Positions 2,340-40,561 of a stretch of 64,000 nucleotides of DNA are shown here, one piece after another. The stretch lies in assembly GCF_044324875.1 (NCBI RefSeq), contig NZ_CP172188.1, one strand, 5' to 3'. The notes beneath the pieces were generated by a model. It was given only the letters and a program-made list of their open reading frames with translations. It did no database searches and was not told where the DNA came from. The translations under genes and the position numbers were made by a program. The DNA is from Escherichia coli (GTDB lineage: Bacteria; Pseudomonadota; Gammaproteobacteria; Enterobacterales; Enterobacteriaceae). The first letter of the stretch is position 1; every line of letters begins with the position of its first letter.

Positions 2340-2519
2340 GATTTCTGCCCTTCTCCATCCCCGCCATCTCACGCTGACATCCTCTTAGACATAAACTCAA
2401 CAAAACGAACTGCATCTTCAGAAACAACGCCGCATGACTTCAGCGAAAAACCGCCGAGAACCCTCGCCCAATGCGGGCGGGGAGGAAAGGCGGAAAAGCC
2501 CGAAGGGCTTTAAAAAAAA

Positions 2520-2945
2520 TCATTCCGGCGTTGACTGGTTTTGAACGTAAGCCCTGAGTGTTTCAATCGTTGCTCCTCCGGTACTACATGCAAAGTAGGC
2601 TCTCGACCAAAGCAAGCCTGTTTTGCTCTGTGTTCGTAAATGTGTGTTTTGTTGACGTAGCAGACGTGACGATACTGATTTCAAATTATTCACCATTACG
2701 CTGACTGCCAGCTTTGGCGGATAGGCAACCAGTAGATGTACATGATCTGCTTCTCCATCCATTTCAAGAATTTCGCATTCAAGTTTTGCAGCAGCGGAAC
2801 AAAAAGCTTCCCGTAGTTGCTCTATCATGCAGCCGTCAAAAAGTTTTCTGCGGTATTTTGTAGTGAAAATTAAATGCACAACGAGCTTACTCACGCTGTG
2901 ACGTTTCCGAAGGAATCCCTCAAGGGATTCATGCTGTTCGCTCAA
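2520..2945 (-). CDS. tnpA: IS200/IS605 TnpA (Y1 HUH transposase)
   Basis: HVHLLV (HUH) motif, KYRRK motif, about 140 aa; followed on the minus strand by a hairpin plus T-run. Confidence 0.85.
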   Translation of the reverse strand: MSEQHESLEGFLRKRHSVSKLVVHLIFTTKYRRKLFDGCMIEQLREAFCSAAAKLECEILEMDGEADHVHLLVAYPPKLAVSVMVNNLKSVSSRLLRQQNTHLRTQSKTGLLWSRAYFACSTGGATIETLRAYVQNQSTPE

Positions 2946-3001
2946 TTGAAAAAACGCCTCAATTTGTTAAAATGATTGAATAATATCAATGAGCGCTGAG
3001 T

Positions 3002-4180
3002 ATGTTAAGAGCGACAAAAGTACGCATATATCCCACTACTGAACAGGCTGAGTATCTCAATGCCCAGTTCGGTGCGGTACGTTTTGCGTACAATAAAGCT
3101 CTTCACATCAAAAAACATGCTTACCAGCGATACGGGGTGAATTTAAGTCCGCGCAAAGATTTAAAGCCGTTGCTGTCTATAGCGAAGAAGTCCCGTAAGT
3201 ATGCCTGGCTCAAAGAGTTTGATTCAATGGCATTGCAACAGGCAGTAATTAATCTTGATGCGGCATTTTCCAACTTTTTTAATCCGAAGCTGAAAGCACG
3301 GTTCCCGACGTTTAAACGTAAACACGGGAGACAATCGAGCTATCACTGCACCGGAATCAAGGTGCTGGATGATGCCATTAAGATCCCTAAACTGAATCTG
3401 CCGATAAAGGCGCGTATACACCGTGTAATTACGGGAAAAGTAACGAGCATAACAATTACTCGCAATGCCGCTGGGGAATATCACGCATCCATCCTTTGTG
3501 ATGACGGTATTCCCGCGCCAGAGAAACCCACGTATCTGGAAGAAGAAAAGATTACTGGTGTGGACATGGGATTAACAGATTATGCCATCAAATCGGATGG
3601 TAATAAGGTTGGTAATCCTCGTCATCTCATCAATGCCAGTCGTAATCTGCGACGCAAACAAAAAGCGTTATCCCGCAAGCAAAAGGGAAGCGCGAACCGT
3701 AAAAAGGCCAGAATCCGTCTGGCAGCGTTACACGAACGGGTGGCTAATGCCCGTGCTGATTTTCAACACAAGCTCTCTCGTGCAATTGTTGACGAAAACC
3801 AAGCGGTAATTGTCGAGACGCTGAAAACAGCCAACATGATGAAAAACCACAATCTGGCAAGAGCGATAGGTGATGCAGGCTGGCATAGCTTCATCACAAA
3901 GCTGGAGTACAAGGCAGCGGAAAAAGGCGTTCACCTGGTAAAACTCGACCAGTGGTTTGCCAGTTCGAAAACGTGCCATTGTTGTGGTTACAAAATGCCG
4001 GAAATGCCGCTTCATAAACGCATCTGGCGATGCCCTGAATGTGGAGCAGAGCACGACCGCGATATCAATGCGGCGCTCAATATCCGGCAAAAAGGAATAC
4101 TGGAACTAAAGGCGGCGGGACTCGTCGTTTCTGTCCATGGAGGCCAGCGTAAATCCGTCGAACAGACGGTAGCGGCCTGA
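3002..4180 (+). CDS. tnpB: TnpB (OrfB) RNA-guided nuclease of IS200/IS605
   Basis: 392 aa; C-terminal zinc finger CHCCGYK...CPECGAEHDRDINAALNI typical of TnpB/OrfB; divergent from tnpA. Confidence 0.9.
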   Translation: MLRATKVRIYPTTEQAEYLNAQFGAVRFAYNKALHIKKHAYQRYGVNLSPRKDLKPLLSIAKKSRKYAWLKEFDSMALQQAVINLDAAFSNFFNPKLKARFPTFKRKHGRQSSYHCTGIKVLDDAIKIPKLNLPIKARIHRVITGKVTSITITRNAAGEYHASILCDDGIPAPEKPTYLEEEKITGVDMGLTDYAIKSDGNKVGNPRHLINASRNLRRKQKALSRKQKGSANRKKARIRLAALHERVANARADFQHKLSRAIVDENQAVIVETLKTANMMKNHNLARAIGDAGWHSFITKLEYKAAEKGVHLVKLDQWFASSKTCHCCGYKMPEMPLHKRIWRCPECGAEHDRDINAALNIRQKGILELKAAGLVVSVHGGQRKSVEQTVAA

Positions 4181-4240
4181 GAAGTGGGAAGCCTCGCCCG
4201 ACAGGGCGGGGAGCAGTCACATAATTCATTGCGTCATTAG
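4060..4240 (+). ncRNA. putative TnpB-associated omega RNA / right-end element (boundaries approximate)
   Basis: Inferred from established TnpB biology (guide RNA from the tnpB 3' end and right end); subterminal hairpin at 4193-4212. Confidence 0.3.
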
Positions 4241-5041: not shown

Positions 5042-5620
5042 ATGCAGAAACAGAGCTATTGGGAGAAACAGAGACAAAAAGCCATGCAAAAATTGGCTGA
5101 CCCAGCCTGGCGAGAGGAACAAAGGGCAAAGCGCCTTCAACAAGCTCAACGCCAGCAGCAGCGAGCGAGAGAAAAAGCCGCATCGCCTGAATATCGGCAA
5201 AAGAAAATTGAAAAAGCAAAGCAATATGAACAGCGGAGAAAAGATAAAGCTGTATCCGCTCCGCCCAAAAAAACACGCACGTCACGCGGCCTGAAGGGCA
5301 GATCACTCACAGCCGATGAACGCCGGATACAGACCGCTATCGGTACTCTCCCCTGCATTGCCTGCCATATTCACGGGCAACATAGCCCAGTGGTATCCCT
5401 GCACCATATCTTCGGGAGAACGGCAGAGAACGCACATAAATATGTCCTCCCTTTGTGTAAATGGCACCACCAGTACGCAGCGCCAGCCGAGGTCCGAGAA
5501 CAATATCCCTGGCTGGTCCCTGTTCATGCTGATGGAAAAATAGGCGGAAAAGCAGATTTCATACGGCACAATGCCGATGAAATGGCGTTGTATCAGATGG
5601 CGATTGAATTAATAAATTAG
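5042..5620 (+). CDS. ref: Ref-like HNH endonuclease (recombination enhancement function)
   Basis: Highly charged K/R/Q-rich N-terminus followed by HNH core CIACHIHG...SLHHI...CKWHH; architecture as in P1 Ref. Confidence 0.6.
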   Translation: MQKQSYWEKQRQKAMQKLADPAWREEQRAKRLQQAQRQQQRAREKAASPEYRQKKIEKAKQYEQRRKDKAVSAPPKKTRTSRGLKGRSLTADERRIQTAIGTLPCIACHIHGQHSPVVSLHHIFGRTAENAHKYVLPLCKWHHQYAAPAEVREQYPWLVPVHADGKIGGKADFIRHNADEMALYQMAIELIN

Positions 5621-6119: not shown

Positions 6120-6431
6120 AATACTGACTGTTGCGCCCTGGCATTATCGTGGGGTATATTTCTACGGCACCTTAGAAAAACGGGTGCCGGGATTGGAACC
6201 CCGGATAATGCAAAAGGCGACACAGACGCCGAAAGCGTCTTTTCTTGTGTCATGCCATCGCACAGCCATACGTAGCGTTTAGCTCAGAGATCAATGGTAG
6301 TGCTGGCTGGGCTGCCGAAAGGCAGGCCGGTTCCCTTTTGCGCCGGTAGTTCCAACCCAGTCAGTGCTACCGCCATTGAGATTGGAACCTCACGCGGTAG
6401 CTCCTTAAATTAGCAAAAGGAGGCTGCCAAT

Positions 6432-20799: not shown

Positions 20800-21705
20800 A
20801 TGAGATCAGTCGCTTTCAAAAACATCTTCATCTATCGTCTTTCACGTGAAGTTAACTGGAGTGCCGCAGAAGTATCCGATGCTCTTAGCAAATTCGTGTT
20901 TACTCCTTGCGGTTCTCAGGACACAGCTAAAGTCGGTTGGACACCTGTTCTTGGTGACAACCTCACCCATGAATACCAGGGTTTTCTGCTAATACAGCAT
21001 AAGCGAGAAGAAAAAATTCTCCCCTCGCAGGTGCTCAAGGAAGAGTTGCAGAAAAAAGTCCTGAAACTCGAAGAAGAGCAAGCCCGCAAGCTGAAGAAAA
21101 CGGAAAGAGACAGTCTTAAAGATGAAGTCCTGCATTCCCTTTTGCCTCGCGCGTTCACGAGAAAATCACTCGCCAAAATCCTGATCGACCGCAGCAACCA
21201 TCTGGTATTCGTTGAGGCAAGCAGCGCCAAAAAGGCAGAGGACCAGCTGGCTTTATTGCGAAAATCGCTCGGCAGCCTGCCTGTCATTCCATTCACACCA
21301 CGCGAACCGCTGGAAATTACAATGACCGAGTGGTTTAAAAACGGCTTCCCTGCCGGATTTACAGCAGGTGAAGACGCCACATTAAAGGGTCTGCTCGATA
21401 ATGGTGGTGCCGTTCGCTGCAACAAAGTTGATCTACAGTCCGACGAGATTATGTCTCACATTGAGGCGGGGAAAGTAGCTACGACCGTTGCAATTAACTG
21501 GATGGAACGCGCGTCGTTCAGAGTCAACGATGATATGAGTATCAAAGCCCTGACATTCTGTGATGATCTCTATGACCAGAACGACGATATCGACCGGGAG
21601 GATGTAGCACAACGATTTGATGCTGATTTCGTGCTCTTTACGGGCGAATTATCTGCACTGTTTAACGCGCTGGTGGAGGCCATTGGCGGTGAAGCAGAAC
21701 GATAA
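20800..21705 (+). CDS. rdgC: recombination-associated protein RdgC
   Basis: Full-length collinear similarity to E. coli RdgC (FTPCGSQD..., [57 protein letters not shown]). Confidence 0.85.
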
Positions 21706-21721
21706 TAACCGACAGCTTGTT

Positions 21722-22369
21722 GTGAGTCTTTGTGATTTTACGGGGGCAATGGTTGCCCCCTGGCTGGAATACGGTGTCGATGCCGCTATCGTCGATCCAC
21801 AGCACTTATCGACCAGTGACGAGCGGATGCAATCAGGTGCCGTTCTGACGCGTATTAGTGCGATCATCGATAGCGATGAAGTATACGCTTTTCTTCGTAA
21901 GAATTTGCAGCGCATCGTGTTTCTGGCCGGGTTCCCACCGTGTACTGACCTGGCTGTTTCCGGCGCGCGCTGGTTTTCTGACAAGGCTAATAAAGATCCG
22001 GTTTTCCAGTTCAAAGCAATGCAGGTTGTCTGGCAGTGTTACGACATTGCAAAGATGATTGGTTGCCCGTACATGATTGAAAACCCGGTCAGCCAAATAT
22101 CGACATTCTGGCGTAAACCTGATCACATCTTCCATCCTTACCACTTCACTGCATATTGCAAGGAAGACAATTACACCAAAAAAACATGCCTCTGGAGCGG
22201 GCAAGGCTTTGTCATGCCTGATGCCCTAATGGACGAATCATTAGGCAAGCCAGATAACAGAATCCATACCGCGCCACCTGGACCTGAAAGGGCTAATTTT
22301 CGAAGTGCTACTCCGCATGGATTCGCAAAGGCAGTTTTCGAAGCGAATAAGGGGGTGCTCTATGAGTAA
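21722..22369 (+). CDS. small C5-cytosine methyltransferase-like protein
   Basis: Motifs resembling C5-MTase I (LCDFTGAM), IV (GFPPCTD) and VI (MIENPV); start assumed GTG 21722 (ORF track 21617 overlaps the rdgC end). Confidence 0.5.
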   Translation: MSLCDFTGAMVAPWLEYGVDAAIVDPQHLSTSDERMQSGAVLTRISAIIDSDEVYAFLRKNLQRIVFLAGFPPCTDLAVSGARWFSDKANKDPVFQFKAMQVVWQCYDIAKMIGCPYMIENPVSQISTFWRKPDHIFHPYHFTAYCKEDNYTKKTCLWSGQGFVMPDALMDESLGKPDNRIHTAPPGPERANFRSATPHGFAKAVFEANKGVLYE

Positions 22370-23267
22370 ATCTATAGCAAGCATAGCCATAGAAAAACAG
22401 GATACGATGGCTGAAATTAGCTATATGCGCACCATTCGGACTCAGGATGAATATGAGCGCCCGATCTTCAAATGGGTAGGCGGTAAATTCTCAGAGTTGC
22501 CTACAGTGCTTGAGCATCTACCACACGGCAAGCGGTTAATAGAACCATTCGTTGGTGGCGGTTCCGTATTTACAAATGCAGGATTTCGCCACAACCTGCT
22601 TAATGATATTAACGGTGACCTGATTAACTTCTATCAGACATTGCAGCGAGAAGGACATTCGCTCGTCACGCTGTCATATAGTTTTTTCCAAAATTACAAC
22701 AACGCTGACGCTTACCTCGAAGTGCGTGAGGCATTTAACAGAGGAAAGTATGACCAGCTACATCATGCTGCCGCCTTTTTGTACCTTAATCGGCACTGTT
22801 TTAATGGCGTAACGCGGTACAACCAAAATGGCGAGTTCAACGTGGGGTATGGCAAATACAAAGCGCCCTACTTCCCACATGCAGAGATGGAGGCATTTTT
22901 GGCTGATGACGTACTCAAAAACACGTCCTTTGTATCAGGTGACTTTGCTGGCGTCATCGAGGCGGCTGGTGAAGGCGATGTGATTTTTTGCGATCCGCCG
23001 TATGAACCGCTGCCGGATACAGAAGGGTTTACCAGTTATTCAGGAAATAGCTTCCGTTTCGACGAACAGAAACGGCTGGTATCTCTATTGGTGGAAGCCC
23101 ACCAGCGCGGCGCTAAGGTAGTGATAACAAATAGTGGTGCGCCAAACATCCGTGAACTATATGAAGGAAACGGGTTTAAAGTACATCATATGGCAGCCAG
23201 ACGGTCGGTTTCCTGCAAGGCGTCAACACGTGTAGTTGCTAACGATATAATTGCAATAATGAAGTAA
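22362..23267 (+). CDS. dam: DNA adenine methyltransferase (Dam family)
   Basis: FKWVGGK N-terminal motif and catalytic DPPY; ATG 22362 with AAGGGGG RBS overlaps the upstream stop. Confidence 0.8.
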   Translation: MSKSIASIAIEKQDTMAEISYMRTIRTQDEYERPIFKWVGGKFSELPTVLEHLPHGKRLIEPFVGGGSVFTNAGFRHNLLNDINGDLINFYQTLQREGHSLVTLSYSFFQNYNNADAYLEVREAFNRGKYDQLHHAAAFLYLNRHCFNGVTRYNQNGEFNVGYGKYKAPYFPHAEMEAFLADDVLKNTSFVSGDFAGVIEAAGEGDVIFCDPPYEPLPDTEGFTSYSGNSFRFDEQKRLVSLLVEAHQRGAKVVITNSGAPNIRELYEGNGFKVHHMAARRSVSCKASTRVVANDIIAIMK

Positions 23268-23269
23268 AA

Positions 23270-23296
23270 AACGCCGCAGTAGCGGCGTTTACTTTT
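23270..23296. terminator. bidirectional terminator between dam and glnS
   Basis: aacgccgc-agta-gcggcgtt hairpin flanked by A-run and T-run. Confidence 0.6.
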
Positions 23297-23315
23297 TCAT
23301 GTGGCGAAATACCTA

Positions 23316-24977
23316 TTAACCTAACTTCGCCCAGGTATCACGCAGCCCAACGGTGCGGTTAAATACCGGTTTTTCCGCCGTAGAATGGCGGCTATCGAGG
23401 CAGAAGTAACCTTCACGCTCAAACTGGAATGCTTTACCCGCAACCGCATCTTTCAGCGACGGTTCAGCAAAGCCCTGTTTGATCACCAGCGATTCCGGGT
23501 TAATCACCGACAGGAAATCATCCGCAGCACCTGGGTTAGGCACGCTGAACAGACGATCGTACAGGCGGATTTCAACCGGCAGCGCATGTGCCGCGCTCAC
23601 CCAGTGAATAACGCCTTTCACTTTACGACCATCTGCCGGATCTTTGCTTAAGGTGTCGGCGTCATAAGTACAGAAGATGGTGGTGATATTGCCTTCGGCA
23701 TCTTTCTCCACGCGTTCAGCCTTAATGACGTAAGCATTACGCAGACGCACTTCTTTACCCAGCACCAGACGTTTGTACTGCTTGTTAGCTTCTTCGCGGA
23801 AATCGGCGCGGTCGATCCAAATCTCACCGCTAAACGGCACCTGACGGCTACCCATTTCCGGTTTGTTCGGATGGTTCGGCATGGTGACCATTTCGCCTTC
23901 GCCCTGGTAGTTTTCGATAACCAGTTTCACCGGATCGATAACCGCCATTGCGCGCGGCGCATTTTCGTTGAGATCTTCACGGATGCAGGATTCCAGCGAC
24001 GCCATCTCAATGGTGTTGTCCTGCTTGGTCACGCCGATGCGTTTGCAGAACTCACGAATAGAAGCCGCAGTGTAACCACGACGACGCAGACCGGAAATGG
24101 TCGGCATACGCGGGTCATCCCAGCCTTCAACGTGTTTGTCGGTCACCAGCAGGTTCAGCTTACGCTTGGACATCACGGTGTATTCCAGATTCAGGCGCGA
24201 GAATTCGTACTGGCGCGGGTGAACAGGAATGGTGATGTTGTCCAGCACCCAGTCGTACAGGCGACGGTTGTCCTGGAACTCAAGCGTACACAGAGAGTGC
24301 GTAATACCTTCCAGCGCATCGCTGATGCAATGGGTGAAGTCGTACATCGGGTAGATGCACCACTTGTTGCCAGTCTGGTGGTGTTCAGCAAATTTAATGC
24401 GGTACAGCACCGGATCGCGCATTACGATAAATGGCGACGCCATGTCGATTTTCGCACGCAGGCAGGCTTTACCTTCTTCAAAACCACCGGCACGCATTTT
24501 TTCGAACAGCGCCAGGTTCTCTTCAACGCTGCGATCGCGGTACGGGCTGTTTTTACCCGGCTGCGTCAGGGTGCCGCGGTATTCGCGGATCTGTTCCGGC
24601 GTCAGTTCGTCAACATACGCCAGGCCTTTGTTGATCAGTTCAACAGCATAGGCGTGGAGCTGATCAAAATAATCGGAGGAGTAACGGATGTTGCCAGACC
24701 AGTGAAAACCTAACCATTCAACGTCGTTTTTAATCGACTCGACGTACTCGATATCTTCTTTTACCGGGTTAGTGTCGTCGAAACGCAGGTTGCACTGGCC
24801 TTTATAGTCCTGGGCGATCCCGAAGTTCAGGCAGATAGATTTCGCATGACCAATATGCAGATAGCCATTCGGTTCCGGCGGGAAACGGGTATGTACTGTG
24901 GTGTGCTTACCACTGGCCAGATCTTCATCGATGATCTGACGAATAAAGTTAGTCGGGCGGGCTTCTGCCTCACTCAT
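23316..24977 (-). CDS. glnS: glutaminyl-tRNA synthetase
   Basis: 553 aa; class I aaRS HIGH ([13 protein letters not shown]) and KMSKS-like (VMSKRK) motifs; essentially collinear with E. coli GlnS as recalled from memory. Confidence 0.95.
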
Positions 24978-25129
24978 TGTGGATTCCTCAAAGCGTAAAC
25001 AACGTATAACAGCGTATGATCTTATAAGCCGAATAGGCTGACAACCACTAGTTGATTAGAAATTGCTTTCTATCGTTATTTCAATAATGAGCTTTTTCAT
25101 TAAGCCCACTTTTGCGCATAAGTAAATTA

Positions 25130-25215
25130 ATGACAAATGGTACACAATTGGAACCAAAAAGGATGTAAAGGTGCACCAAATTAGTGGTGTATTGGTGCAC
25201 CTTTGGTTCAAGACT
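25130..25215. repeat. GGAACC/GGTGCACC repeat cluster with a 10-bp inverted repeat, downstream of parG
   Basis: ttggaaccaaa, ggtgcaccaa...ttggtgcacc, tttggttc; related to the repeats upstream of parF. Confidence 0.4.
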
Positions 25216-25245: not shown

Positions 25246-25533
25246 TTATTTTGCTTCCTCAGACTCCGCTAACATGAGGATAGCATGGCGGATCATATTC
25301 AATTTGCTACGATTATGCTTTTTACTTAACGCATCAAGTACCTGGTACTCGTATTCATTGAAACCAACACGAATAGATTTAAAATCACGTGGAGCGTCCT
25401 TATCGAGCACTTTGTTGTCTTCTGGTTGCTCACCCGGCACCAAATCAGCCTTACTTGCAAAATCCTCAATTCGGCGTTCAAGATCGGGGTCTTTTACTTC
25501 GGGGGCTTTTACCGATTTACGAGGCTTAATCAC
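25246..25533 (-). CDS. ParG-like ribbon-helix-helix centromere-binding protein
   Basis: C-terminal RHH-like segment (SIRVGFNEYEYQVLDALSKKHNRSKLNMIRHAILML); overlaps the ParA-type ATPase gene. Confidence 0.65.
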   Translation of the reverse strand: MIKPRKSVKAPEVKDPDLERRIEDFASKADLVPGEQPEDNKVLDKDAPRDFKSIRVGFNEYEYQVLDALSKKHNRSKLNMIRHAILMLAESEEAK

Positions 25534-26167
25534 TTAATAACTCCTTAACCAACATCTGGATTTCACCTTTAGCTTTCCCGTTGTCCATCTCAACAACGCC
25601 CTTCCCTTCAGCCATGCAATCGCGGTAAACCTTACGATCACGAATGATGGTTTTCAGCAACTTCAGTTGCGGATATTCAGCCAGGTACTCTTTGGCCTCA
25701 TTGGTTTCATTCACAACCGGATTGGATGGGGCCATTGTTAAGACTGCGAACGCCTTAATGCTAGGATTAGGCATCAGGTCCAAAGCCTCTTCAAACACTT
25801 CAACAAAGTGTGCCAGCGTGTCTAAATCTGGTTGAGATGGTCTGAATGGGACCAACACAATATCTGCAGCGGTTATGCCTGTACGCATCTCTTTGCTATC
25901 GCGCCCGGCTGTATCAACAACTACAAATTCATAACGCTTATCCAGATCGAGAAGTGTTTCTCGAATATTACCAAACTTCTGGACACAATGAATTACAGGA
26001 GAAACCTCTGCCGTGTTACGGTCAGCGGCCCAGCGGGCAGCTGTTCCTTGCTTGTCTGCATCTAGTAACACTACATCCTTATTTTCGCGGGCAAGCTCCG
26101 CACAGATGTTTACGCTTGTGGTTGATTTTCCACAGCCACCTTTTTGGCTGACTACCAATATAATCAT
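25526..26167 (-). CDS. ParA/ParF-type partition ATPase (type Ib)
   Basis: Deviant Walker A KGGCGKST, about 213 aa, no N-terminal HTH domain. Confidence 0.85.
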   Translation of the reverse strand: MIILVVSQKGGCGKSTTSVNICAELARENKDVVLLDADKQGTAARWAADRNTAEVSPVIHCVQKFGNIRETLLDLDKRYEFVVVDTAGRDSKEMRTGITAADIVLVPFRPSQPDLDTLAHFVEVFEEALDLMPNPSIKAFAVLTMAPSNPVVNETNEAKEYLAEYPQLKLLKTIIRDRKVYRDCMAEGKGVVEMDNGKAKGEIQMLVKELLSD

Positions 26168-26452: not shown

Positions 26453-26824
26453 TTAATCAGGGAGTGAGTTTGCCAAATTCTGAGCAGAGCGGCTTTTCGG
26501 AACGCCTGGTTTTTTTACATCCTCTGAGACAGAGGTTTTTCCTTCAGTAGGTTCCCGAACTTCATGCGAAATTTCAAGAAACGAAACCAGCATTTTTCTG
26601 ATCACTTCAGAGCTATTATCACCGGATAAAAGCGATGCCAACATGGGAGGTAATCTGCTATCAACCTCGCCAAGAGCGATACCTGCAAGCATCGCAGTGC
26701 GCACCATATCATTGCGATCACTTAATGGATGGGCCTCAATTTTTGCCACAGCATATTGCTCACTGGCGTAAGCGTTAAGATCTGAACGAAGATAAAACAT
26801 TATTTTTCGACGTTCTTTAGACAT
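26453..26824 (-). CDS. parR: ParR-like partition adaptor (type II system)
   Basis: Small protein downstream of parM; N-terminal RRKIMFYLRSDLN...RTAMLAGIALG resembles ParR of R1. Confidence 0.55.
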   Translation of the reverse strand: MSKERRKIMFYLRSDLNAYASEQYAVAKIEAHPLSDRNDMVRTAMLAGIALGEVDSRLPPMLASLLSGDNSSEVIRKMLVSFLEISHEVREPTEGKTSVSEDVKKPGVPKSRSAQNLANSLPD

Positions 26825-26834
26825 GGCAACCTCA

Positions 26835-27794
26835 TCAACCGATAGATTTTAGACCATATACAAGAGCAAGTTGTGGATCATCAGCAACGAAAAACCTATC
26901 GTCACGAATGTTTACCTGCTCACGGATAGCATCAGCAACAAGCGGCGCGCCGCCACCAATTACCATAACATGTGTGTATCCTTTGAAATCACTGATCACA
27001 TCCAGTACGCGTGTACGGAGTCGCTCTATGCTTGACGAAATGGCTTTCTTAACATCATCAATAGCAGACGGATCGTTAATATTGTCGGTCAGATAATCCT
27101 CATCATCTCGATTAATGATTAATTGATCGACGTTATAATTAGAGGTTTCGGTATTAGCTTTTGCAAGTGCCTGTCTGACCTCTTTAGTTACCAGCGAAAC
27201 GCCGAGATTAGAATCGCCAAATACGCGAGAAACGGCGGTCATTTGCCCGGCAACCATCGACACATCCAGAGTAGTCCCGCCAAGATCAACAATAAGCACA
27301 GAATGCGCTGGCACAAGGCTGTCGCACAGACCGATCCCTGCGGGTATTGACTCCGGGCGCACAGTCACTTTTTTGATAGTAAAAACCTGACCTTTGTTAA
27401 GGGTGACTGGTCGCATCAGGCTGGCCTTTTTCCGCTCAATATTTTTCATGTTGTATTGTGCGTCGTCGTCATAAAACTCTGCCAGTGGCAACGTGACTAC
27501 TATTTCCACTTCTTGAGGCTCAATGCCACTTGTAAGCAGGGCATGATGAACAGCAAGCACATTAAGCGGGCTGTATTGCCATTCAACGTTATTCGTTGGC
27601 AGAGCATCCGGCGAGATCAAGTCATATGAATATTTTTCGTCATCAATGATGTAGTTAAACGTTTTTCCTGCGCCAAATGTGGCGGACCATCCACGTTTAA
27701 AACTGTTCGGGCAGATATGGGTTCGAGTTTCCCCGTCTTGTTCCCACAGCATTTTGATATTGGTAGAACCATCGTCGATAAAAATGCGCATCAT
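26835..27794 (-). CDS. parM: ParM/StbA actin-like partition ATPase
   Basis: MRIFIDDGSTNIK N-terminal phosphate-1 motif as in ParM; ATG 27794/27791 with GGAG RBS (ORF track 27920 extends into the iterons). Confidence 0.8.
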   Translation of the reverse strand: MMRIFIDDGSTNIKMLWEQDGETRTHICPNSFKRGWSATFGAGKTFNYIIDDEKYSYDLISPDALPTNNVEWQYSPLNVLAVHHALLTSGIEPQEVEIVVTLPLAEFYDDDAQYNMKNIERKKASLMRPVTLNKGQVFTIKKVTVRPESIPAGIGLCDSLVPAHSVLIVDLGGTTLDVSMVAGQMTAVSRVFGDSNLGVSLVTKEVRQALAKANTETSNYNVDQLIINRDDEDYLTDNINDPSAIDDVKKAISSSIERLRTRVLDVISDFKGYTHVMVIGGGAPLVADAIREQVNIRDDRFFVADDPQLALVYGLKSIG

Positions 27795-29846: not shown

Positions 29847-30019
29847 GAACATAAACAATAAAATAAATCATCAAAAATTTGATGTTGATCTTCCATGTTT
29901 TCAGGCTTATATTCACGCCGTTGCAGCAAATTCTGCGACCGGGTTTAGCAGCCTGAATGTACATGCGGACAACCGCAGATATCCGATATTGCGGTATTTT
30001 TGTGTCCGTAAAACCATGT

Positions 30020-30110
30020 TACGCCCGAATTATGGTGGGGCGTGATGGGGAGGCTTCGGCCTGCTGGTTTCATGTACGCCAGTCTGCTAACCCCGTCACG
30101 TCCTGCCACC
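30020..30110 (+). ncRNA. c4-like antisense RNA region of immunity module 2 (boundaries approximate)
   Basis: Element ctgctaa (about 30083) is complementary to ttagcag at 29945 and 30116 in the icd leader; compensatory changes in module 3. Confidence 0.45.
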
Positions 30111-30160
30111 CGTTTAGCAGCGGGTAGCAGGTTGTTAAACCTGTACATGAGGCCGTAACT

Positions 30161-40248: not shown

Positions 40249-40299
40249 AGTTACGGCCTCATGTACAGGTTTAACAACCTGCTACCCGCTGTCAAACAG

Positions 40300-40390
40300 G
40301 TGGCAGGGCGTGACAGGGTTGACAGACTGGCGTACATGAAACCAGCAGGCCGAAGCCTCCCCATCACGCCCCACCATAATTCGGGCGTAA
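40300..40390 (-). ncRNA. c4-like antisense RNA region of immunity module 3 (boundaries approximate)
   Basis: Paralogous to 30020..30110, with the pairing element changed to ctgtcaa and both target sites changed to ttgacag. Confidence 0.45.
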
Positions 40391-40561
40391 CGTGGTTTAC
40401 GGACACAAAAATACCGCAATATCGGAAATCTGCGGATGTCCGCATGTACATTCAGGCTGTCAAACCTGGTCGCAGAATTTGCTACGACGGCGTGAATATA
40501 AGCCTGAACATCTGGAAGATCAACATCAAATTGTTGATGATTTATTTTATTATTCATGTTT

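Follow-up and report, generated by a model that had tools for sequence, protein, structure and literature searches.

In the present study, we analyzed a 64,000-nt stretch of Escherichia coli DNA (contig NZ_CP172188.1 of assembly GCF_044324875.1; hereafter, the window) that carries a complete gene for glutaminyl-tRNA synthetase (GlnRS), glnS, at 23316..24977 on the minus strand. Judged by its sequence, the window is a D6-like phage-plasmid of the P1 family; its relatives are closed circular plasmids of 87-98 kb, and D6 itself is a viable phage. Our results suggested that this glnS is probably an old, once-captured and working cargo gene (a "moron") of D6-like P1-family phage-plasmids. In the proposed scheme, the ancestor of one sub-lineage would have acquired, on a single occasion, a minimal glnS cassette (promoter to stop codon) from a chromosome of the Escherichia type, and the cassette would have landed between the terminator of the methyltransferase gene dmt and the partition (par) operon. 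From its own Dam-repressed sigma-70 promoter, leader and ribosome-binding site, it would make a GlnRS that has a shortened tail and 2-5 conservative changes relative to the host enzyme. Purifying selection keeps the plasmid gene intact, and its ~97% identity to the host gene over 1.7 kb allows recurrent overwriting of stretches of it by homologous recombination from chromosomal alleles. The selected benefit would be an extra or privately controlled supply of GlnRS that helps the host or the element. The presence of glnS on D6-like phage-plasmids is already known, being annotated, published and ordinary for the family; what we add here is the anatomy of the cassette, its single old origin, the strong purifying selection on it, its recurrent gene conversion from chromosomal alleles, its kept Dam-sensitive promoter and the existence of relatives that lack it.

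The glnS gene and the phage-plasmid that carries it

The open reading frame at 23316..24977 encodes a 553-residue GlnRS and ends in a TAA stop codon followed by TAG. The protein scored 1069.1 bits against the NCBIfam equivalog TIGR00440 (glnS), for which the cut-off is 425.8, with residues 28-551 aligned to model positions 1-524. A phmmer comparison with the solved E. coli GlnRS chains (1o0b_A, 1gtr and others) gave a full-length match of 1296 bits; the deposited chains, of 548 and 539 residues, stop short of the altered C-terminal tail described below. The class I motifs HIGH (residue 41) and VMSKR (residue 268) were present in the window copy and in the 10 other copies of our plasmid set, which comprised 11 copies from E. 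coli, three Salmonella serovars and phage D6. Compared with K-12 glnS, the window gene differed at 50 of 1650 nt (3.0%), and among 550 codons, 47 differences were synonymous and 2 were non-synonymous. At the protein level, these differences amounted to the conservative changes V97I and I112V, together with a tail reading KLG* where K-12 has KVGE*.

The expression signals of the gene were likewise of the chromosomal type. The promoter scan placed a sigma-70 promoter at 25016..25044 on the minus strand, with the -35 hexamer TTGTCA at 25039-25044, a 17-nt spacer and the -10 hexamer GATCAT at 25016-25021. Both hexamers were the same as in K-12 and were kept in all 11 plasmid copies. A Dam site, GATC, lies inside the -10 hexamer and was also present in the chromosomal copies of Escherichia and Citrobacter. 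The Shine-Dalgarno sequence GAGGAA (24984..24989, minus strand), located 6 nt before the ATG, was identical in all plasmid copies and in the chromosomal Escherichia copies, and the conservation across the 11 plasmid copies extended to the leader. The leader of the window gene was nearly base-for-base chromosomal; relative to the chromosomal sequence, the promoter spacer carried four substitutions, the leader carried one, and a further one lay immediately ahead of the ATG. These results agreed with the first-pass annotation of the window, which had described a full-length glnS with its own leader, essentially matching the E. coli enzyme. For the chromosomal gene, a passage in PMC11741368 cites derepression of the glnS promoter in dam mutants (Plumbridge and Soll 1987; log2 fold change of +1.08 by RNA sequencing of a dam deletion).

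The surroundings of the gene were those of a phage-plasmid. Escherichia phage D6, a P1-like plasmid prophage, matched the entire 2.9-kb dmt-glnS-par region at 98.4% identity, and in the two 25-kb blocks that we tested, the window was collinear with D6 at ~96% identity (73% of 1-25000 and 72% of 39001-64000 aligned). In the D6 record (NC_050154), orf62 is annotated as glutamine--tRNA ligase and occupies the same position as glnS in the window. The dmt-glnS-par arrangement was found at 98-99% identity in 98 PLSDB plasmids that covered at least 80% of the 2.9-kb region; these plasmids were 75-97 kb in size and came from E. coli, Salmonella and Shigella. Relatives of the window were typed as rep_cluster_1704 and non-mobilizable, and the exact GlnRS protein of the window occurred on 20 public contigs, the longest of which was 97.9 kb. 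Among 5,426 complete E. coli genomes, the sequences flanking glnS were present in 100 (~1.8%), on plasmids only, and the two flanks were separated by glnS in 74 of these 100 genomes, or about three quarters. By this count, D6-like phage-plasmids are common in E. coli. The same flanks matched none of the chromosomes in the 5,426 genomes, and so no integration of the plasmid into a chromosome through glnS homology was detected there.

Two trivial accounts of the gene, an assembly chimera and a native chromosomal window, were rejected as practically impossible: glnS is flanked by dmt and par sequences, and the same junctions occur in D6 and in ~100 closed plasmids from many laboratories. The native chromosomal context of glnS is nagE-glnS-chiZ-chiP, and neither nagE nor chiP sequence was found at either side of glnS in the window. 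The collinearity with D6 and the dmt-glnS-par order supported the first-pass view of a host-type glnS carried as cargo on a phage-plasmid backbone. That annotation had also called such cargo unexpected, which proved mistaken, as the gene is annotated as orf62 in NC_050154 and is discussed as cargo in PMC6799933. The latter paper (2019) described glnS as a moron of D6-like genomes such as pYU39_89, credited the earlier D6 genome paper (2018), and proposed a role in host fitness or plasmid maintenance by analogy with cysS of pBT1. In our literature search, no paper was found that tested the function of the D6-like glnS.

Capture, age and mosaic structure of the cassette

The boundaries of the captured piece were examined by aligning the window with K-12, seven other chromosomes and the 11 plasmid copies. 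The segment homologous to the Escherichia chromosome spans 23293..25075 on the minus strand and takes in ~100 nt ahead of the ATG and ~25 nt beyond the stop codon. At the 5' side, homology ended ~85-100 nt upstream of the ATG, just past the -35 box; at the 3' side, it faded within ~25 nt of the stop codon, ahead of the chromosomal repetitive extragenic palindromic (REP) sequence. Both edges were fuzzy and far more diverged than the interior: the 5' edge had 7 differences in ~50 nt, and the 3' edge had ~10 in 30 nt, among them the one by which the protein tail became shorter. According to these alignments, the captured piece is a minimal cassette running from promoter to stop codon.

Beyond the 3' edge, the terminator scan identified a two-way intrinsic terminator at 23269..23290, called on both strands, with a 9-bp stem (6 GC pairs) and T runs on either side. 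The predicted RNA fold had an energy of -20.6 kcal/mol (z ~ -4) in both orientations. The hairpin begins 1 nt past the dmt stop codon and 25 nt past that of glnS, and it is common to these two convergent genes. It is plasmid sequence and was absent from the 3' flank of chromosomal glnS. The first-pass statement that glnS ends precisely at a bidirectional terminator thus held for the two-way hairpin with T runs on both strands, and was slightly loose in the word "precisely," given the 25-nt gap.

All 11 aligned plasmid copies agreed in their junctions at the 5' and 3' sides, had the KLG tail and carried the same non-chromosomal terminator. These common junctions and the altered tail pointed to a single capture. 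In a tree of the 5' 700 nt, the plasmid alleles formed one clade with 97% bootstrap support. A clean empty site that would mark the insertion boundaries was not found among three glnS-less relatives, in which the spacer between dmt and par was diverged and contained a different terminator; because of this, no base-precise boundary could be drawn.

The divergence of the plasmid alleles suggested that the capture is old, or that it was made from an unsampled lineage at the level of an Escherichia species. Across the 5,426 complete E. coli genomes, chromosomal alleles were 96.4-97.9% identical to the window allele, and none exceeded ~97.9%. The identity of plasmid alleles to the window allele ranged from 97.2% to 99.3%, with pTB423 as an outlier at 95.5%. 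E. coli chromosomal alleles diverged from one another by up to 3.4%, and plasmid alleles diverged from chromosomal ones by 2.1-4.5%. For pTB423, the divergence from E. coli chromosomal alleles reached 5.1-5.8%, equal to that of E. albertii or E. whittamii from E. coli. This allele was the least converted of the plasmid alleles, and its synonymous divergence (dS) from K-12, 0.26-0.30, was the same as that between E. coli and E. albertii. Taken with the common junctions and tail, these values spoke against the earlier suggestion that the gene had been captured recently. Our scan for donors, based on an exact 29-mer, returned E. albertii, E. whittamii, a divergent "E. coli" and several species of Citrobacter and Enterobacter; E. 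fergusonii, Salmonella and the type genome of E. coli were not recovered, and the locus of Escherichia sp. MOD1-EC7003 was cut. The copy of C. koseri NCTC10786 was left out of the trees, as it carries a frameshift in the assembly.

Mosaicism of the plasmid alleles was assessed in triplets by the maximum chi-square method with permutation. The results revealed four sharply bounded tracts. In pAPEC201603, all 24 informative sites within gene nt 36-663 were of the K-12 type (p<=0.007). In D6 and in a Salmonella Typhimurium plasmid, the K-12 type occupied nt 1020-1576 (p<=0.003). The window allele was of the K-12 type 3' of ~nt 1426, at its last 7 informative sites (p<=0.003), and also had a patch in common with another chromosomal allele type. 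In pRHB04-C06_3, nt 1314-1383 were E. albertii-like (p<=0.003). In trees of the 3' 950 nt, the plasmid alleles were never monophyletic and were scattered among E. coli chromosomal allele types. The bounded tracts and this scatter indicated that, by homologous recombination, chromosomal glnS has repeatedly replaced parts of plasmid glnS.

Conversion in the opposite direction was examined with a plasmid-type haplotype of 69 nt (nt 222-290), selected as a stretch in which no chromosomal allele can seed a match; it was found on 68 plasmids and on no chromosome. Among the 80 copies carried by plasmids of complete E. coli genomes, about 12 did not have this haplotype, which fits conversion of the tract. 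Conversion by the present host was not detected in two plasmid-host pairs, in which 0 of 58 and 5 of 58 informative sites pointed to it, neither being significant.

Constraint on the gene and its possible roles

The ratio of non-synonymous to synonymous substitution rates (dN/dS) was 0.024 among plasmid copies, 0.028 between plasmid and chromosomal copies and 0.011 among chromosomal copies. The 5' part of the gene that stayed plasmid-specific and unconverted also gave values of 0.02-0.03, and pTB423 differed from K-12 by 87 synonymous and 8 non-synonymous changes (dN/dS ~0.02). Plasmids of E. coli and Salmonella encoded identical GlnRS proteins. For about 2 of ~75 listed copies, glnS was not annotated, and both of these differed in length by 1 nt, so that ~97% were annotated as intact. 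Because dN/dS was as low as 0.02-0.03, the enzyme is almost certainly functional. We infer expression and catalytic activity from these data, and with high confidence, the cassette would make an active GlnRS. In the E. coli genomes, glnS was present in 5,424 of 5,426, at 5,427 chromosomal places, and in two verified plasmid hosts the chromosomal gene was intact, had an unchanged promoter and lay between nagE and chiP. Since the hosts keep chromosomal glnS, lysogens have two GlnRS genes. A tRNA search of the window found no tRNA-Gln and no other tRNA gene.

Several observations weigh against the view of an old, selected cargo gene. At least three D6-related lineages do not carry glnS (NZ_AP027678.1, NZ_CP159120.1 and NZ_CP022228.3). 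In these plasmids, dmt is directly followed by a terminator of its own, and a 110-145-nt spacer then leads to the par operon (L063:3960-4112, L064:3863-3999 and L065:4468-4613 in our locus set, respectively). Because such plasmids exist, glnS is dispensable for the life cycle of the element, and the published statement that all D6-like genomes carry it is slightly too strong. The constraint on plasmid copies was also about twofold looser than that on chromosomal copies, and repair through gene conversion, instead of selection acting on the plasmid copy, could account for part of the intactness of the gene. On the other side, the copy was intact in Salmonella hosts too, with the same E. coli-type alleles, which is counter to an intactness due to repair only. 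The plasmid clade fell outside all sampled chromosomal Escherichia with a bootstrap value of only 42%, too low to assign a donor lineage. Finally, the candidate roles raised in the first-pass annotation, namely dosage, addiction and protection, are not separable by sequence alone, and the candidate benefits also include a lytic boost.

The repair argument leads to a neutral account, according to which a successful plasmid lineage has merely retained the cassette while the essential chromosomal copy repaired it by conversion. Gene conversion from the chromosome was demonstrated, the ~12 of 80 copies without the nt 222-290 haplotype would be in line with it, and the glnS-less relatives and the twofold relaxed constraint would be expected. 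We nevertheless consider this account unlikely in view of the dN/dS of 0.02-0.03 in the plasmid-specific 5' segment, the 87 synonymous against 8 non-synonymous differences of pTB423, the ~97% of listed copies annotated as intact, and the alleles in Salmonella hosts, which were intact and identical to those of E. coli plasmids. A possible but doubtful role of the cassette is plasmid dependency of the type seen with cysS of pBT1, in which chromosomal glnS would be down-regulated or dispensable and plasmid-free cells would be at a disadvantage. Such a role was proposed for the D6-like gene by the authors of PMC6799933, and it has a precedent in strain D23580, where cysS of pBT1 is required for growth while chromosomal cysS is strongly down-regulated (PMC6333337). 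The position of glnS among maintenance functions, with partition operons adjoining and, in the D6 annotation, a higBA module near it, is consistent with this role. Against it stand the nearly universal presence of chromosomal glnS in E. coli, its intact state and unchanged promoter in the two verified hosts, and the persistence of several D6-related lineages without the plasmid gene. We know of no feedback mechanism that silences chromosomal glnS. Dependency at the level of expression is nonetheless compatible with these sequences, because chromosomal cysS of D23580 is also intact and unchanged in sequence.

Large phages often carry tRNA genes and sometimes aminoacyl-tRNA synthetase (aaRS) genes. 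This background makes it conceivable, although we would not expect it, that the cassette boosts translation in the lytic cycle: the Dam-repressed promoter would be derepressed on under-methylated copies, during lytic replication or just after entry, and GlnRS would rise when phage protein synthesis peaks. The -10 hexamer GATCAT, kept in 11 of 11 plasmid copies, the derepression of the chromosomal promoter in dam mutants in the cited passage of PMC11741368, the adjoining Dam-family methylase gene of the phage itself and the four tRNA genes reported for the D6-like plasmid pYU39_89 (PMC6799933) would all fit such a booster. However, the effect of Dam is only about twofold, the window is without any tRNA gene, and GATC is the ancestral state of the promoter in Escherichia and Citrobacter, so that its retention needs no special cause. 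By analogy with other synthetases, a role in protection or backup against a toxin, defense system or inhibitor that inactivates GlnRS or tRNA-Gln, an idea raised in the first-pass annotation, was also considered, and was judged very improbable. Additional aaRS copies make cells resistant to inhibitors of these enzymes, and aaRSs or tRNAs are the targets of some toxins. The plasmid enzyme, however, differs from that of the host by 2-5 conservative changes, none of which lies in HIGH or VMSKR; being near-identical, it would be as sensitive to an inhibitor as the host enzyme, and thus only dosage could protect. In addition, no feature annotated near glnS, in D6 or in the plasmids that we examined, is described as acting on GlnRS or tRNA-Gln.

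An old cargo gene that supplies additional GlnRS is the reading that we retain as probable. More speculatively, and with a rather small chance of being right, the cassette may be a regulated second GlnRS that tracks the methylation or replication state of the element, or one on which the lysogen depends, as with cysS of pBT1; it may also be a permanent partner in recombination for an essential gene of the chromosome, with segments of host glnS alleles, an E. albertii-like tract among them, being copied into the element and moved between strains and genera.

Neighboring features and comparison with known systems

The gene convergent with glnS, at 22362..23267 on the plus strand, encodes a Dam-family DNA adenine methyltransferase (D6 orf63, P1 dmt-like), as indicated by a TIGR00571 match of 249 bits and by the D6 annotation. 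On the other side lies the partition operon (25246..26167, minus strand), which, according to the D6 annotation, consists of a ParA-family ATPase (25526-26167) and a 95-residue partner (25246-25533). The first-pass annotation had labeled this pair a ParF/ParG module, a partition system of type Ib. The ATPase, of 213 residues, matched NF041546 (ParA_partition) with an E value of 7e-48 and 162.8 bits, below the curated cut-off of 180. The 95-residue protein, labeled "ParG" in the first-pass annotation, had no Pfam match even at E<=10 and no NCBIfam match, and a ribbon-helix-helix centromere-binding protein of the ParG type was not recognized in it; it may be a divergent small DNA-binding partner of ParA. 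A 226-residue protein at 21689-22369 (plus strand), labeled as a second methylase and annotated in D6 as a DNA methyltransferase, likewise had no match in Pfam at E<=10 or in NCBIfam. The evidence for the annotated roles of these two proteins is weak. The earlier label of the dam-type methylase was confirmed by TIGR00571, and the "ParG" and upstream methylase labels were left unconfirmed by the profile searches.

A repeat search identified a 13-nt perfect inverted repeat, AAAGGTGCACCAA / TTGGTGCACCTTT, at 25167..25204, in the interval that separates the glnS promoter from the end of the par operon. The palindrome GGTGCACC occurs in each arm, and the terminator scan made a terminator-like call at 25186-25201 within the repeat, which may be a candidate par terminator or centromere-like site. 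Motifs related to this repeat, GGTACAC and GGCACCA, were found in the spacers of glnS-less plasmids. Two different partition systems stand back to back in the window, the small ParA-type operon with its ATPase at 25526-26167 and a ParM/StbA-type operon at 26453-27791, both on the minus strand; RdgC (20800-21705) and the methylases lie on the opposite side of glnS.

Elsewhere in the window, Rfam identified three C4 antisense immunity RNAs of the P1 type, at 6290-6377 (plus), 30028-30113 (plus) and 40296-40381 (minus). C4 target elements (a1/b1) were located at 29907-29959 and 40449-40501, adjacent to two of the C4 genes, and an isrK-like small RNA at 6167-6245 lay beside the third. P1 itself is said to have one c4 locus. 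The region at ~2439-4220, which did not align to D6, was 79% identical to the orfB transposase region of the IS605-family element ISEc46 in the phage-plasmid RCS47.

Essential housekeeping genes are rare on mobile elements, and cysS of pBT1 is the only one shown to be a plasmid-retention device. The role of the D6-like glnS would show whether aaRS capture is a general strategy of phage-plasmids for maintenance or infection, and the mosaic glnS alleles preserve, as a clean natural record, the recombination of a phage-plasmid with an essential gene of the chromosome. Among the known systems, glnS of D6 and pYU39_89 is the same gene as that of the window, with the same position, junctions, KLG tail and terminator, convergent with dmt and beside the ParA-type operon. 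The window gene differs from that of D6 at 38 nt, 2 of them non-synonymous, and the two mosaics are different: D6 is of the K-12 type at nt 1020-1576, whereas the 3' end of the window allele is of the K-12 type and one patch of it is shared with another chromosomal allele type. The chromosomal gene of E. coli (b0680) encodes the same enzyme except for V97I, I112V and the tail, and shares the -35 and -10 boxes with GATC, the Shine-Dalgarno sequence and a nearly identical leader. Unlike b0680, the window copy has neither the nagE terminator upstream nor the REP sequence and chiZ-chiP downstream, and it ends at a foreign terminator.

Outside the phage-plasmids, a 280-kb E. coli record in PLSDB (CP061260.1:202351-204002) contained a chromosomal-type glnS with 97.3% identity over nt 1-1652, the match ending before the phage-plasmid 3' tail; possible explanations for this record are an F-prime-like element, a misassembly and a further capture. 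The plasmid p.S175-1.4 of Citrobacter cronae (NZ_CP060445.1, ~98 kb) likewise carries a glnS with its own promoter region, near a higB toxin gene. In contrast to the window, it has a conjugative MOBP/MPF_I backbone, its glnS is paired with cysS (L003:1844-5668), and the GATC of the promoter is lost (GAACAT). Its glnS is of the Citrobacter type, 5.9% diverged from C. werkmanii and 13% from the window. The cysS-glnS pair is an independent aaRS capture by a non-phage plasmid, and it resembles pBT1. In Salmonella Typhimurium ST313 D23580, pBT1 also presents a class I aaRS gene, cysS, that is doubled on a large low-copy plasmid while the host copy is intact (PMC6333337). It differs from the window in that pBT1 is not a phage-plasmid, and in that the essentiality of the plasmid cysS and the silencing of the chromosomal copy were shown experimentally.

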